64,000 nucleotides of DNA from Spirochaetia bacterium (lineage in GTDB: Bacteria > Spirochaetota > Spirochaetia > DSM-2461), in assembly GCA_963666985.2 (NCBI GenBank), contig CAXXIA010000002.1, forward strand, positions 1,856,001-1,920,000, in the 5' to 3' direction. The position numbers are program-made. Shown piece by piece: positions 15,001-21,000 of the stretch. Positions within the stretch are counted from its first letter, which is position 1; the number at the start of each line of letters is the position of its first letter.

Positions 15001-18000
15001 TGGCTATCGCTTCGGGAAATGAGGCGCTTCCGGTTTGATCGGTTCGCGAGAAAAGGGGTGGTAGCCTGAGAAGAATGAAGGGATGGAGATGAGAAGAATG
15101 GAGATTGTTTTCTCCGTGGTTTTGCCTTTGAGAATAAGGCTGAATGCTTTAAGAGAATACCGGTGTAGAAGGAGAAGACGAACATTCGGATTTACAGAAT
15201 CCGTCCTGAGAGAAAGAGGTCGGGAAAGGCGAATTGCATCGGATGAAGGCCTGAGTAAAGTGATGAGGCGATGAAAGGGAGAATAGGGGTCAGTACGAGA
15301 GAATGGATAGATATTCCGTTAAATGAGTAAAAAGCGGAAGAGGGAAGTCTGTAAAAGGATGAATGAAGAAAAGATGAGAAGGAGAAGGGCAAGAAGAATC
15401 GAAACAAAGGGTCCGGCAAAATGGCGAGGAGGGGTGAGGAGAAGGAGAGGTCTTTATAGATGCGTCGTCCGAACTTCCTTTAACAGCTGTTGATGCGCTC
15501 CGGCGGTAACGATGTTACCGCCTTCGGGGCTTCGCCCAAATTTGCCTCTGTCATAGATTTTGCTTAAGTCTGTCGCTATGGTAAGATGAGTTGTAGTTAG
15601 CGGTTGATGCTGTGAAGATTCGCAAAATCTCCGCCAGTCGCTACGCGAACGGCAAACTTCGCATACCAGCGGGCCGTTTGGTGCAATATTAGAAAATGTC
15701 ATAAATTATATCTTTCGGGGATATTGGTACAAGTTTCATTATGTCGGCAAAGTCGTATTGAATTATAGTTATACTTAAGTTATACTTGGCGGTATGAAAA
15801 CGGCAATCTCAATTCCAGATCAATTGTTCAATGACGCTGAGATAACAGCAAAACAATTAGGACTGGCAAGAAGTCAGTTATATGTTAAGGCAATAAAAGA
15901 ATATATAGACAATCATAATAAAGACAAAATACGAGAGAAACTTAACTCAATTTATTCCACAAACACTAACATCACCGAAATTGATAATATCGGAGTTGAT
16001 TCACTTCGCCAGGCAACATTAAATGATACGTGGTGAAATTTGGTGGGCTGATTTAGGGCTTCCATTCGGAAGTGAGCCTGGATTTAAGCGGCCAGTCGTT
16101 ATAATACAAGACGATTCGTTCAACAAAAGTAAAATTCAAACGGTAATTGTCGCGTCAATAACAACAAATTTAAATTTAGCCGATGCCCCTGGAAATGTTT
16201 ACATAGAATCAGAAGAATCTGGATTATCCAAAGTTGGAGTAATAAACATTTCACAGATATCAACTATAGATAAAAGGCGATTAATAGAAAGGGTAAAGAT
16301 ACTACCGTCTAGTATCATGGAAGAGCTAGATTTTGGAATAAAAATTATTTTGAATATCAGATAGATTTTCTGATACTGCACCAAACAGCTGTTGATGCGC
16401 TCCGAATACATTTGCAAGCAAATGTATTCTCCGGGGCTCCGCCCAAATTTCGCTTTGTCCATGTTTCTTGCAGATGCGTTCCTGGAAGTGGTGTGATAAG
16501 GTGAACAGCGAACAGGCTTTCTGGCGAAGTGCAAGAACGCATGCCAACCGGCTTCGCCGGACGCGAAACTTCGCATACCAGCGGGCCGTTAAATGAACTA
16601 TGAGAATTCTTTATAGCTTGAAGGAGTCGATTTATGGAAAAAATAATAGTTAAAATCGATGCCTGTGGATCAAAAGAGCATGTATCTAAATCAAAAGAAG
16701 AAAACCAAGCAAGAGAAAAACTCCTCCAACAGATTACAAACATTGCGAAAGAAAACTATCCAAAAACTGAAAAAATATACCCAGATGGCACAATATATTC
16801 CGCTCAAGGTGATTGTCTCAATTTAATCCTTGATCGCCCAAACGTTGCACTACGCTCTACGGTCAATTTCATGAAAGCTTGGTACGCTCACCTTGGAACA
16901 TATCCTGATTGCAGAGCTATTATCACAAAAGCTGACGTCGTTGAAAATAATTCCATTGGGAAGATGGAACTCCTATCGCGGGGATTCGAAGAAATATCAA
17001 AGATCGAAAAGCACGCAGATGCTGGAGAAATTCTTATTACAGATCCAATAAGACACGTGGCAGAAAAAGGCACCTTTACTTATACTGGACCTATACCACA
17101 CAGAATCTCTTCCTCTCATACGATAAACTCCTACAAAGTAAATTATCTAAATCCTAGAACGGCTAGTGATAGCAGTTTAGTTCATGCTTTGTTTATTGCA
17201 AATCCGGTATCGGATGCAGTAAGAGTGCGTACATATGAAGTCGTTACGATTGAATTCTTGCTAAATAACACCGGAAAACAATCGGTCGACATCCTAATTG
17301 AGTATTTAAAAAGCAAAGACTTCCCTCAAATTGATAAAAAGACATTGCTAGAAATACTTGGAAGTTCAGAGTATATCCAATCAGTTAACACTGAAATTTC
17401 ACTTAGATCAGGAATTGAGGACAAGCTTCGCGGTTTTCGTGACGTCTACAATACTGAAAGGAAAGAAACTACAGAGTCAATTGCAGAGGAATTAGGTAAA
17501 GCACTAGGCTTAGATTCAGAATATATCCAAGAGAATATTAGCCTCGATAAGTTAATCGAAGAATATATAAGTGCAGTTTTTTTGGAAATCAGAATGATGG
17601 CTAATTTCTATAGGTTAGAAGAGAAGTTTTTTGAACAGCTTGCTATCAATAAATCATATGATCATATTTTTCACCGTCATTTTCAGAAACTCAACCTAAA
17701 GGACGAGGAGATTGACGAATTTAAGAGAATTTTCCTAACAGTTTTAAATAGACACAGTATAGAAGAAAACAAATATTTCGCAGCGATTTTTCATAATGTA
17801 TTGCTAGTCTATTATATGAATAGAAATGATAAGTACATTGTTGAACAAATTGATAATCTTCGAAACAAATATATATTACTGGATACCAATGTACTATACG
17901 CACTTCAATGTAAGGCGAGTGAATATAATTCGTTTATTTCTCATGCAGTTAGTAAACTAAAATCTATCGGCGTAACAATAAATGTTTTTGACCGAAGCGT

Positions 18001-21000
18001 TTATGAATACAATGAATCACTTCTAAGTGCGGACCATCAGTATAAAAAGCATGGTGAGATAGCTTTTCGTTTCGACGGATACAATCCCTGGATCTGGAAT
18101 GAATTTAAAACAAATAGGGATGCCTATATGAATGATTTTAGCTATTGCATACAGTTGCACACAATACCTAAGAATCTTGGAAAGACAATTCTTATAGACA
18201 CTGATAATCCTCCAGACGAACTTAATGAAATTAATTTGAATGTTGTTAAGTTAGAACCGTTTTATGAAAAGGAAGATTTAGGAGATTATTACAGTAAGAC
18301 AGCAGAGGCGAAGCGAAAGTGGTTCGATTCAGAGCATACAGTATATTGGCTTGAAAATAGCCAGGAATACGAAGAAAAAGTATTGCACGATGCTAACTGC
18401 ATTAAACATTTGGAATGTGTTGGCGATACACCGTACGAAACGTCGAATATTTTCATTACCTGTGATTTCAGATTTGCAAAGATTCGTAAAATGTTTGATC
18501 CGCATATTAATTACATAACAACAATTAAAGAGTTTCAAGAATTTATGATGCCATATTTACTCCTTGATGTTACTGAAACTGATACGAAAATTGCTACGCC
18601 CAACTTGTTATTAGCATCGGCTATCGGGTCTGAGCTTGCACATACAAAGGAACTTGAAACAGTTGTAGGGGGCTTTCTTAGACACGAACATAAGTCTGCA
18701 TCAGAATTCGAAATATTGAGACGTGTAAAAAGTAAGAAAAGATTTGAAAACATAGAAGAAAAATGTTCATTTGAAAAGCTAAATACAGAGAATAGTAATG
18801 ATTTCATAAATGACGCTTCTGCTTTTGCAGATGATTATCAGTCAACATTAAGAGAAAATCTCTCAAGATCATTTGCACAGAAATCGATCGAAAGAATTAT
18901 GAAAGAAAATGCAGAGCTTAAAGCTCAACTTAAAGAAAAAAATCGTGTGGTTGATGTAGTAGAAAAAAAACAACGGGGCCGGGAAAAATACCAAAGAGCA
19001 CAAAAACGTCGAGTGCCATAGTTCATTTAACAGCTGTTGATGCGCGGCGGCCGCTAATGGGATTAGCGGCCTTGGGCCGAGCGATGGAAAACAATGAGTT
19101 TTATGATTTATGTAAAAGGGAGAAATGAAATTGGTTCGGCTCGGCCAAATTTCGCTTTGGCGATGGCTCTTGCAGATGCGTTCTTGAAAGTTGTGTGATA
19201 CTCTGAAGAGCGAACGAGCTTTCTGCTAAGAGCAAGAGCACATGCCAACCGGCTTCGCCGGCCGCGAAACTTCGCATACCAGCGGAACGTTATTCGAAAT
19301 GCCTTTTTAAATAAATTTATCCCTCGGCATCCGTGCCTCGGGTATTGGAGACAGTAATAATGAAGATTCCAACATATAAGAAATTTGTTGCTCCAGTTCT
19401 TAAATATTTAGCAAGTGATGGAAAGGCTCATAAAGCTGCAGATGTCTACGAAGGCGTTGCAAATTTAGTGGGTTTAACTGAAGAAGATAAATCTGAACTT
19501 TTACCAAGTGGGGTTCAAGCTGTTTATAAAAATCGTATTGGATGGGCGCAAGATGCAACAAAAAGAAATGAACTAACTTGGAGCCCTTCTCGCGGTGTTT
19601 GGCAAATAACCGAAGCGGGTAATGATTTATTAAGAAAATATAACGGTGAAATTCCTGCTGACATCGAATATACAATTGCTTCAACTAAACGGAATATACG
19701 TTTGTCTGAAATCCAGGAAAATGAAGTTAATTTTGAGAATGAAGAGGAATCTGAGTCAAGTCCAGAAGAAAAAATATACAAAGGGTTGCGTGAAATCAAT
19801 GAAAGTGTCGTTGTCGAACTATTAGAAAGAATATCAGAAATTACCCCACAAGAATTTGAGAAATTAGTTTTAGACGTCCTGCATGCTATGGGTTATGGAA
19901 CTGATAGATCTGACTTACAGAATGTAGGAAAAAGTCATGATGAAGGAATTGATGGGATAATTTCTTTAGATAAACTTGGTCTTGAAAAAGTTTATGTTCA
20001 AGCTAAAAGATGGAAGAATCAAGTTGGAAGCCCTGAAGTTCAAACATTTATGGGAGCACTTCAGCTTAAGGGCGCGAATAAAGGTGTTCTAATATCTTCT
20101 GGACCCATAACAACACCAGCATACGATTTAGCAAAACAAGCACATGGAAATCTTGTTTTAATTAATGGAACCAGACTTGCAGGTCTAATGATTGAATATG
20201 GTATTGGTGTACAACATCGTGTAATTAAAATTGCTAAAGTCGATCAGGATTATTTTGATTAAAAAGATGTTGATTGGTTTCCAAAGTACATCCATGTACT
20301 TTGGAAAAAGGCTTTGAAGTAGTCAAGGCACTTCGAATAACAGATGTTGATGCGCTCCGGCTGAAAATGGGATTTTCAGCCTTCGGGCTCTGCCACAGTT
20401 TGCTTTGTCATATCATTTGCGATTTTGAATAAGAAACATGTGTGGTATAATTGGAGTAGTTGAGGGTGCAAAGTTATACGGCAAATGATACGCCAAGCCT
20501 GCGGCGCGCAAACCGTCGCATAACATCGGGCCGTTATCGGCTAGAATATTTAAATATAAGAAATTGATAATATTAGAAGGAGAGCTAAATGAAAATCAGG
20601 ACGATTATAGCTTTATTATTATGTTTTCCAATATTTAGTTTGTTTTCTGAAGACATGCCTGTTCTCTATTATAAATTTGGAACAGAAAGAAATCAAATTA
20701 TTTTTGAATTGGGTGAACCTGAATATTTCTTACCGGGTGGTCATCTTCAATATACCTTTTATTCCGGTGCCTCATCTTATGAAAAGATAATATTTCTTAT
20801 TGATGAAAATAACAAATTATTTGCAACCACAATAGACATAGGACTTGATTATTCAACTCCGATTCCCATAGAAGAATTACAAAATAGAGTATTTAAATAC
20901 TATAAAGATTATTTTGAAGGTATATTTGGAGTGCCATATATATCGAATGAAATGGGTCTCTTGTGGAAATTTGATGATGCATTTTGCTTTTTTCAACCAT

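Follow-up and report, generated by a model that had tools for sequence, protein, structure and literature searches.

CBASS with NucC or Cap4 and type III CRISPR with Csm6 or Can1 are nucleotide-signalling defences with nuclease effectors, built from separate proteins with dedicated receptor domains (SAVED, CARF). The same logic, a nucleotidyltransferase signal that switches on a nuclease, was tentatively ascribed by the genome-wide survey's note to a single protein of 795 aa. Pycsar cyclases, according to their description (PMC11224242), are of class III fold, bind metal through two aspartates and dimerise head-to-tail. The TPR - GreA/B-C - PIN conflict proteins are portrayed, in the passages of Kaur, Iyer, Burroughs and Aravind (eLife 2021, PMC8195603) that concern them, as stand-alone genes whose neighbours are seldom conserved: the core is constant and closes with a divergent PIN domain, and the N-terminal effector domains, a PNPase among them, alternate. 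In the same passages, the authors propose the nuclease as a first line and the head as a second output.

The 795-aa protein is encoded in a 64,000-nucleotide stretch of a Spirochaetia bacterium genome, hereafter the window, and has traits of both groups. Like Pycsar cyclases, its family has a head of predicted class III fold, matching the Pycsar cyclase structures 7r65 (Z 15.2), 8jsz (Z 15.1) and 8jsf (Z 14.5), and the family motif R94-x-x-I-D98-x-G aligns with R-V-G-V-D-Y-G of a neighbouring Pycsar cyclase. At 7 of 33 loci a gene for the Pycsar effector PycTM adjoins that of the family, twice in the position of a cyclase-effector pair. Unlike Pycsar cyclases, the family head shares its chain with a winged helix, a PIN nuclease and a coiled coil, is detected neither by the Guanylate_cyc model nor by an HMM from four neighbouring PycC proteins, and mostly occurs without a Pycsar effector, as in the window, whose genome has no PycTM. 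Compared by their published description, the TPR - GreA/B-C - PIN proteins share with the family the stand-alone gene, the constant PIN-bearing core and the variable N-terminal head. The same description sets the family apart by its core of winged helix and helical scaffold, in which neither TPR nor GreA/B-C is detected, and by a decayed cyclase scaffold kept even in head-swapped forms.

The cassette gene and its family

The gene starts with ATG, and its reading frame is open across 795 aa. It lies between two attC-like sites, with no room in the cassette for a second gene:

~16380..16594, + strand: upstream attC-like site, closing the preceding MazEF cassette, with a terminal GTTAAAT core
16621..16626, + strand: Shine-Dalgarno-like AAGGAG, 8 nt upstream of the ATG, read from the sequence
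16634..19021, + strand: gene of 795 codons and a TAG stop, sole gene of its integron cassette
~19025..19295, + strand: attC-like site belonging to this cassette, beginning with ATTTAAC and terminating with GTTATTC

The GTTAAAT core (16588-16594) is the 5' boundary of the cassette, and ATTTAAC of the downstream site is its complement. The 5' core of the attC-like repeat occurs in 35 copies on the + strand of the window, versus 0.38 expected by chance. The survey's note had placed a one-gene cassette among defence cassettes, and the window agrees with it: its conflict genes include NACHT, a D12 methylase with DpnII, VapC, two MazEF, Mrr, Fic, Ntox44, two HicB, a ThsB-TIR with a caspase and ParE, along with IS elements. 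The gene is accessory and cassette-borne; it was found in 0 of 40 relatives searched. At other loci, the neighbours of family genes include integrases, recombinases, toxin-antitoxin pairs, restriction genes, PNP-EAD7 and TIR. No homologues were found in phage, plasmid and viral-contig collections.

The protein is a member of a new, rare and small family. With the query itself counted, our homologue search returned 43 rows (25-39% identity), just two of which carry precomputed Pfam domains, and the full library of 1.84 billion proteins holds 95 representatives (E<=1e-3). Pfam matched no family on the protein, its sole weak row being Zw10_N (E 0.024), and NCBIfam and PADLOC gave no match. The novelty claimed in the survey's note is borne out, as is its observation that the solved structures closest to the family profile are class III cyclases: they take the five best places, led by Ma1120 (4wp3, E 7.6e-5). 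Scanned member by member with Pfam (n=34), the family shows PIN_3 in seven proteins, PIN in three and Guanylate_cyc in one.

Predicted domains of the 795-aa protein

An AlphaFold2 model of the protein (pLDDT 85.5, pTM 0.84) upgrades domain calls that were weak on sequence, and suggests the following division:

16634..17158, + strand: head of class III nucleotidyl-cyclase fold, residues 1-175 (VIA-align, Foldseek, PDB profile, signature conservation)
17165..17461, + strand: putative winged helix-turn-helix, residues 178-276 (fold match, predicted secondary structure)
17462..17863, + strand: all-helical conserved scaffold, residues 277-410 (motifs EIRMMANYF and IFHNVLxxYYLNR)
17864..18568, + strand: PIN-fold domain, residues 411-645, with ~90 residues inserted (VIA-align, Foldseek, tetrad conservation)
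18569..18781, + strand: helical region past the PIN domain, residues 646-716, with a conserved PYLFL...FPNxLL motif (model)
18782..19018, + strand: C-terminal region, residues 717-795, a single long helix (718-793) with a basic tail (DSSP on the model)

At the fold level, the model indicates that the head is a real class III cyclase-type domain, in line with the original call. The fold spans about residues 1-171 and superposes best on Rv1264, over 154 residues in VIA-align (Z 19.2, rmsd 2.4); Foldseek gives E 4.7e-6. Class III cyclases match with Z from 19.2 down to 12.2 and outscore GGDEF (Z at most 11.8) and Cas10 (Z 10.7). We defined a cyclase signature of eight residues: D9, S13, K14, G59, D60, R94, E125 and K126. 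Of the 66 proteins that lack a long N-terminal extension, 60 have all eight and the remaining six have seven. Both presumed metal aspartates had been called invariant; among 34 aligned full-length members this is true of D9, and D60 is kept in 33. D9 was assigned to the metal site through the fold match and the D-x-x-G-[SF]-[KT] pattern; no sequence alignment placed it there. The family has not kept the transition-state Asn/Arg pair that is canonical for class III cyclases: weak profile alignments (hhalign E 0.015, probability 3%; E 0.1) put E119 in place of the Asn and a variable residue in place of the Arg. Because this pair is missing, cyclase activity of the head can only be inferred.

The head may also dimerise. 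Its predicted homodimer scores 0.70 versus 0.50 for the best of three controls, with at least 93% of contacts agreeing between runs and a partner pLDDT of 88. Of 30 proteins solved as same-chain pairs, 20 reach that mark, and of 23 solved as single chains one does. As class III cyclase dimers have already been solved, this pass may merely mirror likeness to them.

The middle of the protein, unexplained in the survey's note, is predicted to be the winged helix followed by the helical scaffold. The winged helix (residues 3-101 of the sub-model), with three helices and a beta hairpin, resembles MotA, BlaI-like, Fur, PadR and Z-alpha types at a moderate Z of 6-7, and is presumably a nucleic-acid-binding module. 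No known fold could be assigned to the scaffold, which contains the invariant columns F386, H387, N388, V389, Y394 and N396. The long C-terminal helix, where several members have weak Pfam coiled-coil matches, is presumably a coiled-coil oligomerisation element.

VIA-align recognizes a PIN fold on residues ~412-633 (PAE0151, Z 8.9, rmsd 3.1, 127/130 residues), and 20 of the best 21 fold rows are PIN-fold proteins by title. By VIA-align's own account Z 8-9 is a range that can be common, which makes this evidence moderate. Foldseek has a PIN protein as its top match in this region (E 0.15, probability 0.97) and finds nothing at E<=1e-3. The four acidic residues named in the survey's note, D417 (in DTN), E458, D586 (in HD) and D611 (in TxD), are indeed invariant in the 34-member alignment, and the D-E-D-D tetrad is intact in all 71 family proteins covering the region. 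We compared the domain with PAE0151, VapC2, VapC15, FitB, the Rrp44 PIN domain, Nmd4 and HARP. Small PIN proteins are covered over nearly their whole length (127/130, 130/134 and 134/137 residues), and VapC-type toxins and other PIN nucleases have four acidic residues in the same order. Unlike them, the family PIN has ~90 extra residues, sits within an 800-aa protein, has no antitoxin with its gene and scores below the Pfam cut-offs. Altogether, the model argues for a real PIN-like domain at the fold level, probably active as a nuclease.

Exchangeable heads and Pycsar neighbours

Seven family proteins begin with an additional domain, 250 aa or longer: alpha/beta-hydrolase DUF676 (3), GT4-conflict (2), PNP_UDP_1 (1) or Metallophos (1). 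The hydrolase head of one (P0041) matches a PADLOC model with E 4.7e-21. Only 0-4 of the eight cyclase signature residues are left in all seven, so the head is exchangeable; the same pattern is repeated in eight locus rows. These variants still carry the decayed cyclase scaffold, together with the PIN tetrad and the helical-core motifs. Since the latter stay intact where the cyclase site has decayed, the nuclease core has no need for a cyclase product.

PycTM is linked to the family. Among 33 non-redundant loci, those with at least 1 kb of flank, PycTM lies above its Pfam cut-off within 2.3 kb of the family gene in seven (L008, L010, L011, L024, L026, L038 and L048). Their family proteins are only 30-63% identical among themselves, and the cyclase signature is intact in all of them. 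As a base rate, within the window's phylum 18 of 301 genomes have one PycTM each that exceeds the cut-off. In L010 the start of the family gene lies inside the PycTM ORF's overlap with it, and in L038 PycTM ends ~30 nt ahead of the family gene, with no other cyclase within 6-8 kb in either. The other five loci also contain a separate PycC-like cyclase; there, the neighbour could be a complete, independent Pycsar in a common defence island. This recurrent neighbour strengthens the case for a signalling role of the head. Because relatives stand repeatedly beside PycTM, the window's protein probably represents a new type of phage defence linked to cyclic nucleotides. The window's head is without an identified receiver, as its genome has no PycTM.

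A modular reading and its alternatives

The explanation we prefer, with about an even chance of being right, is a modular stand-alone conflict protein, most likely anti-phage, that joins a constant nucleic-acid-binding nuclease core to a Pycsar-like signalling head. The core, made of the winged helix, the helical scaffold, a PIN-type metal-dependent nuclease and the C-terminal coiled coil, would bind and probably cut invader nucleic acid, and would keep the protein together in dimers or larger oligomers. The N-terminal position would house an exchangeable output head, which in ordinary members, the window's included, would be a class III cyclase-type nucleotidyltransferase. Two such heads would pair head-to-tail and turn an NTP into a cyclic mononucleotide. 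Where PycTM lies next door, the nucleotide would trigger this membrane effector in Pycsar fashion. In stand-alone cassettes such as the window's, the PIN nuclease would be the sole built-in executioner, and the nucleotide may act on other host proteins or on the producing protein. The trigger, the cyclase product and the defence phenotype are inferred.

Several observations count against this modular reading. None of the curated Pfam, NCBIfam and PADLOC models is passed. An in-frame stop interrupts the family gene of L010. Residue 98 is T in the window's protein and D in 65 of the 81 family proteins with a residue aligned there, or in 32 of 34 in the full-length alignment. Two head-swapped proteins, P0063 and P0041, may keep one or both aspartates according to MAFFT, and the head-swapped forms appear to fall in only ~3-4 places on the family tree. 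The missing Asn/Arg pair, the way D9 was assigned, the moderate PIN evidence, the genome's lack of PycTM, the separate PycC-like cyclases at five of the seven loci and the failure to find homologues in the phage, plasmid and viral-contig collections weigh on the same side.

The survey's note envisaged a single-protein signalling defence with the cyclase wired to the nuclease in one chain; PycTM speaks for its signalling part, and the same-chain coupling finds no support in that form. In such a self-contained system, which we consider possible and rather unlikely, a trigger would act on the cyclase head, whose cyclic nucleotide would bind either its own chain or other copies of the protein and activate the PIN nuclease. 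In its favour, ordinary members show strong purifying selection on both active sites, the gene is the only one of its cassette, in a genome devoid of PycTM, the Pycsar link suggests that the head makes a signal, and the invariant polar residues H387, N388, N396 and R397 of the scaffold could form a ligand pocket. However, no known cyclic-nucleotide receptor appears by title among the best 50 fold matches of residues 176-716, Pfam reveals no such domain either, and, unlike in CBASS and type III CRISPR, no SAVED or CARF-type receptor is seen and the core persists without a working cyclase. Those 50 matches consist of PIN-fold proteins and winged helices, plus a few folds unrelated to either. In addition, variants with a hydrolase, phosphorylase or glycosyltransferase head retain the tetrad and the candidate pocket motifs in full; as the cyclase site has decayed in these proteins, their nuclease cannot depend on its product.

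It is improbable that the head is instead a receptor or regulatory pseudo-enzyme that binds NTP, or a cyclic nucleotide made by a neighbouring PycC, and controls the PIN nuclease. In that case the protein would act as an additional effector of Pycsar type rather than as a signal generator. The separate PycC-like cyclases at five of the seven PycTM loci, the missing Asn/Arg pair and a solved class III cyclase-like protein that only binds ATP (6yii, Z 12.2) would suit that role, but the near-invariant metal aspartates, the GSK loop and R94 fit catalysis better than binding, L010 and L038 offer no other cyclase nearby, and most loci, like the window's genome, have no Pycsar partner beside the gene.

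Finally, PIN is the commonest toxin fold of toxin-antitoxin pairs and MazEF, HicB, ParE and VapC are frequent in the integron array, yet a role outside defence, whether as a toxin-like addiction module that stabilises this array or as an RNA-processing or regulatory enzyme linked to cyclic nucleotides, is very improbable, given a cassette with neither an antitoxin gene nor room for one, a gene found in none of the 40 relatives searched, a multidomain build of 795 aa with swapped conflict-type heads unlike housekeeping or simple addiction modules, and the linkage to PycTM and to defence and mobile-element neighbours in many loci.

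A one-gene cassette and its family

P0001, the window's own protein, is encoded by a single gene between two attC-like sites.

Features of the P0001 cassette (window coordinates)
16380-16594: upstream attC-like site, about 215 nt, ending in GTTAAAT (16588-16594)
16634-19021, + strand: family gene P0001, 795 open codons with a good ribosome-binding site
19025-19295: the cassette's own attC-like site, about 271 nt, beginning with ATTTAAC (19025-19031), complementary to GTTAAAT

The cassette holds one promoterless ORF, and its own site, whose core is complementary to that of the upstream one, begins four bases past the stop codon. 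The 5' core of the repeat, AACAGCTGTTGATGCG, has 35 copies in the window, all on the + strand, where chance would give 0.38. Since the ORF is bounded by two copies of this repeat, the gene is a one-gene cassette of a very large array. attC sites usually measure 57-141 nt. Given the length of the two flanking sites, and the 22 copies of the inner motif GCCAACCGGCTTCGCCGG against 35 of the 5' core, the window may contain long and short attC-like forms, with something nested inside the long ones.

The immediate neighbours of the cassette are MazEF upstream and Mrr downstream. Farther away in the window lie NACHT, a D12 methylase with DpnII, VapC, Fic, Ntox44, HicB, ThsB-TIR with a caspase, and ParE. 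The genome-wide survey's note had described the gene as the founder of a new family, carried by a one-gene integron cassette amid defence cassettes. We agree on each count: the single ORF stands between sites with complementary cores, the neighbours are typical conflict genes, and P0001 has no named match in Pfam, NCBIfam or PADLOC. Pfam returned just a chance-level coiled-coil match for P0001, and NCBIfam no meaningful match for any of the 34 members scanned; PADLOC gave nothing for P0001, and its sole match among the 34 was to the extra hydrolase head of another family protein, P0041.

A word-indexed search with P0001 retrieved 43 rows, query included; an exhaustive search of 1.84 billion proteins gave 95 representatives (E<=1e-3), of which many are fragments. 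Genome-resolved homologues belong to Treponemataceae, Desulfobacteraceae, Thermodesulfobacteriota, Sedimentisphaerales, Zixibacteria, several Acidobacteriota and one gammaproteobacterium. The gene was found in none of the 40 related genomes searched, and no homologue turned up in the plasmid, phage and viral-contig collections. It is a rare accessory gene of patchy spread. At 2.4 kb, P0001 is a compact, experimentally tractable one-gene defence candidate that joins the growing list of integron cassettes acting as defence genes.

Predicted fold and conserved residues

An AlphaFold2 model of P0001, built from a 34-sequence alignment, reached pLDDT 85.5 and pTM 0.84. A sub-model of residues 176-716, made from 11 sequences of the window and the homologous loci (pLDDT 74.6), was fold-searched separately.

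The N-terminal head (residues 1-171) takes the fold of a cyclase homology domain. It superposes on Rv1264 with Z 19.2 and rmsd 2.4 over 154 aligned residues, and the following rows down to rank 25 are all class III cyclases or cyclase-like proteins. Three Pycsar cyclases score Z 14.5-15.2, against at most 11.8 for GGDEF and 10.7 for Cas10. Foldseek gives E 4.7e-6, with a target TM-score of up to 0.82.

The rest of the chain, referred to here as the core, comprises a winged helix, a helical scaffold, a PIN domain and a presumed coiled coil. The winged helix (residues 178-276) matches MotA, BlaI-like, Fur, PadR and Z-alpha domains at Z 6-7. The scaffold (residues 277-410) is strongly conserved and could not be placed in a known fold. 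The C-terminal residues 718-793 are modelled as one long helix. In a language-model atlas, residues 400-720 fell into one unnamed cluster (0.81) and residues 176-410 had no usable match, which is uninformative.

The PIN domain (residues 412-633; 237-458 of the sub-model) aligns with PAE0151 at Z 8.9 and rmsd 3.1 over 127 of 130 residues, and with VapC2 at Z 8.8. PIN folds, by title, fill 20 of the top 21 rows of the sub-model search, with nearly whole chains covered. Residues were counted on an hmmalign alignment of 124 proteins: the acidic tetrad D417, E458, D586 and D611, in the order D, E, D, D, is complete in all 71 proteins that cover the four positions. Below the curated Pfam cut-offs, PIN_3 appears in 7 of 34 members (best E 0.0076) and PIN in 3 of 34 (best E 3.7e-4); neither model matches P0001. 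With Foldseek, the best match of the sub-model is again a PIN protein (E 0.15), with none at E<=1e-3, so that the assignment rests on VIA-align and the tetrad. Since the list of fold matches is consistent and the tetrad present, we regard the predicted PIN domain as solid at its moderate Z of 8-9.

The head has a signature of its own: D9, S13, K14, G59, D60, R94, E125 and K126. All eight are found in 60 of 66 proteins without a long N-terminal extension, and seven in the other six. Among family proteins with a residue aligned at the position, D9 is kept in 69/70 and D60 in 72/81. The GD of D60 aligns with that of Ma1120 and of eight real cyclases. D9 closes strand 1 within D-x-x-G-S-K, where real cyclases have D-I-x-G-F-T. 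Both metal-binding aspartates, on strand 1 and in the beta2-beta3 hairpin, can be recognized, D9 being placed by fold and motif rather than by residue-level alignment. The segment R94-x-x-I-D-x-G aligns, weakly, with R-V-G-V-D-Y-G of a Pycsar cyclase encoded beside a family gene. P0001 carries T98, at a position held by D in 65 of the 81 family proteins with an aligned residue. Two domains proposed by the survey's note, a class III cyclase-like head with conserved aspartates and a PIN-like nuclease with four conserved acidic residues, are borne out by these folds and counts.

The head shares its fold and GD with class III cyclases but differs from them in the absence of the transition-state Asn/Arg pair (helix 4, N-x-x-x-R): in weak profile alignments E119 aligns with the Asn and a variable one (K123 in P0001) with the Arg, N120 and K126 being close by. 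None of the 34 members scanned reaches the curated cut-off of Guanylate_cyc (PF00211); P0001 has no match at E<=10, and one of 34 members matches at E 0.056. By hhalign, the head compares with one neighbouring PycC, the Pycsar cyclase, at E 0.1 (probability 0.6%) and with the eight real cyclases at E 0.015 (probability 3%). Being too weak to prove homology by sequence, these alignments served just for motif placement. An HMM of four neighbouring PycC proteins matched no family gene at E<=1e-3. As all sequence alignments of the head with cyclases are weak, its cyclase chemistry is something that we infer.

Class III cyclases build their active sites in a head-to-tail dimer. For the head of P0001, a predicted homodimer reaches 0.70, where the best of three controls has 0.50. 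This lies just at the mark: of proteins whose solved structure is a pair of one chain, 20 of 30 attained it, and of those solved as single chains, 1 of 23. Likeness to solved dimers may explain the score, because the interface (residues 13-36, 54-62 and 101-122) is of the usual class III kind. Contacts agree between runs at 93% or more, with a partner pLDDT of 88.

Head exchange and linkage to Pycsar

In seven family proteins the N-terminus is extended by an additional domain of 268-425 residues.

Family proteins with an extra N-terminal domain
P0031, P0121: GT4-conflict domain
P0041, P0063, P0066: DUF676-type alpha/beta-hydrolase domain
P0049: PNP_UDP_1 domain
P0111: calcineurin-like phosphoesterase domain; nuclease part missing

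The cyclase signature is down to 0-4 of 8 residues in all seven. It has decayed likewise in eight locus rows with extensions of 241-343 residues and, without a long extension, in P0069, P0043 and P0119. By a MAFFT alignment, one or both aspartates may survive in P0063 and P0041; heads so divergent are hard to align. The PIN tetrad and the helical-core motifs are unaltered in every variant that reaches the nuclease. On a FastTree phylogeny of 61 proteins (supports not inspected), the hydrolase forms group in a single clade; the GT4 and PNP forms branch next to each other in the opposite half, with P0069 separate from them. This placement suggests about three or four independent head-swap events. 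In P0111 (611 aa) the phosphoesterase is joined to a decayed copy of the family head; the head scaffold also exists, then, outside the usual family architecture.

The variants amount to a natural experiment: the head is intact on its own and decayed in every form with a second enzyme ahead of it, and the nuclease stays the same throughout, which tells the constant machinery from the exchangeable output. Judged by these sequences, the putative cyclase head is exchangeable. Its site appears to be selected just when it is the sole head, so the head is probably an enzyme. We favour, with about even confidence, a protein whose winged-helix and PIN core is constant and whose head serves as output. 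Such a core would bind invader nucleic acid and probably cleave it, and the head of the P0001 cassette would act as a Pycsar-like cyclase.

The survey's note had instead wired the cyclase to its own nuclease within one chain, a self-contained arrangement in which the former activates the latter. Both domains are indeed present in P0001, but the tetrad and core motifs persist where the cyclase signature has decayed. The core would accordingly work without a cyclase site, implying that the nuclease is more than a downstream effector of the cyclase; we consider such wiring unlikely. That the head is a receptor or a pseudo-enzyme would suit the missing Asn/Arg pair and sits poorly with the retention of the signature in sole heads. 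This is quite improbable to us, below both the favoured constant core with an output head and the self-contained wiring.

No cyclic-nucleotide receptor was found in Pfam or among 50 fold matches for residues 176-716, of which 277-410 and 646-716 are barely sampled by the fold search, so that absence is not implied. As to a receptor cassette nearby, the nearest of the genome's 16 cNMP_binding matches lies 23 kb beyond the window and was discarded because no attC repeat surrounds it.

The design resembles that of the TPR-GreA/B-C-PIN conflict proteins, for which Kaur et al. (PMC8195603) give 13 alternative N-terminal effectors; the core domains seem to differ. Neither TPR repeats nor a GreA/B-C domain was seen before the PIN domain in Pfam or in the fold matches shown, where residues 277-410 are barely sampled.

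We scanned the neighbours of family genes with Pfam on crude ORF calls, covering 96 ORFs in 12 loci from genomes and, of 131 ORFs in 27 loci from metagenomes, 124. In six loci (L008, L011, L024, L026, L038 and L048), a gene for PycTM, the membrane effector of the Pycsar anti-phage system, adjoins the family gene with a score above the curated cut-off. A seventh, in L010, was picked up by an HMM of the other six, and Pfam supports it with 47.2 bits. Loci with a near-complete gene number 43 and form 37 groups at 90% identity, of which 33 have at least 1 kb of flank on one side or both; PycTM is linked in 7 of these 33 non-redundant loci. The seven family proteins share 30-63% mutual identity and come from both halves of the family; gene order and orientation vary, and the cyclase signature is intact in 7/7. 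Among 301 genomes from the phylum of the window, 18 have PycTM above cut-off, one in each genome of 2-5 Mb, so chance adjacency should be of the order of 1 in 10,000.

A PycC-like cyclase stands beside PycTM in five of the loci; four are Pfam Guanylate_cyc, and the fifth, in L026, was seen just with a purpose-built HMM (E 1.5e-16). Such a complete Pycsar system could share an island with the family gene and nothing more. The PycTM ORF of L010 overlaps the family gene at its start, and that of L038 stops about 30 nt short of the family gene; neither locus shows another cyclase within 6-8 kb. Here the family protein occupies the PycC place of the Pycsar pair. The Pycsar pairing of a cyclase gene with a PycTM or PycTIR gene is seen in these relatives and not in the window, whose cassette has one gene; no PycTM (PF18967) occurs in the window's whole genome, which is 93% complete.

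Three loci deserve mention. An in-frame stop near 8976 divides the PycTM-coupled family gene of L010 (8001-10397, in a gammaproteobacterial MAG); the gene may be a pseudogene or exist as a split form, or the stop may be a sequencing error. In L024, a Pycsar-like operon (2153-4942) of PycTM and then two cyclase genes, one with an AGS_C sensor domain, lies directly upstream of the family gene. L001, from a Treponemataceae MAG, has two ordinary class III cyclase genes near its family gene (6480-7865 and 14353-15867), one directly upstream, and no PycTM was found in it.

Besides PycTM and PycC, no conserved partner gene stood out in the Pfam tables of the 96 and 124 neighbour ORFs. The other neighbours include integrases, recombinases, ParE, Mrr with Z1, RAMA, TIR with PIN, PNP-EAD7, Schlafen-AlbA and a DEAD-MZB helicase with nSTAND3. 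They fit a defence or mobile-element setting, in which a role of P0001 outside defence is very improbable. We rate the family as putative kin of the cyclic-nucleotide-linked, modular, stand-alone defence proteins.

To our knowledge, how Pycsar cyclases sense infection is still an open question. A Pycsar-linked cyclase head fused to a putative nucleic-acid-binding nuclease core is a concrete, testable candidate for such a sensor. More tentatively, the family may form a new branch of cyclic-mononucleotide immunity, with a Pycsar-type cyclase fused to its own infection sensor, a winged-helix and PIN module reading invader nucleic acid. It would act alone from a one-gene cassette, supply the cyclase of a PycTM pair or feed a second input into a complete Pycsar operon, its head having been swapped repeatedly for direct killing enzymes. 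If true, this would amount to a first identifiable trigger-sensing module for a Pycsar-like pathway. Neither a cyclase-PIN fusion nor a Pycsar-PIN link is described in the full-text literature searched, with subscription journals thinly covered and supplements excluded.

Other genes of the array

The array is broken up by several IS copies with identical domain scores (IS481-like, IS3-like and IS21-like: 9351-10544, 30188-31381; 22286-23104, 36719-37537, 54372-55190; 58811-60825). Two MazF ORFs (16023-16364 and 50642-50983) have the same Pfam score of 97.4 bits, as do two HicB ORFs (41438-41773 and 42752-43087) at 76.6 bits; these identical scores suggest recent cassette duplication within the array.

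A NACHT protein of 647 aa is encoded at 1096-3039. At 37885-39013, a Ntox44 toxin-domain protein is followed by an overlapping 160-aa ORF, a candidate immunity gene. A ThsB-type TIR ORF (136 aa) directly precedes a caspase (Peptidase_C14) ORF (321 aa) at 46437-47809, apparently in one cassette, and the two possibly form a two-gene defence unit. On the opposite strand, 10697-13750 (-) encodes a GAF histidine kinase (715 aa), a receiver-domain protein and a 187-aa ORF inside the array. A GAF kinase also adjoins the family gene in another locus, L002, there together with a REC-CHAT protein.
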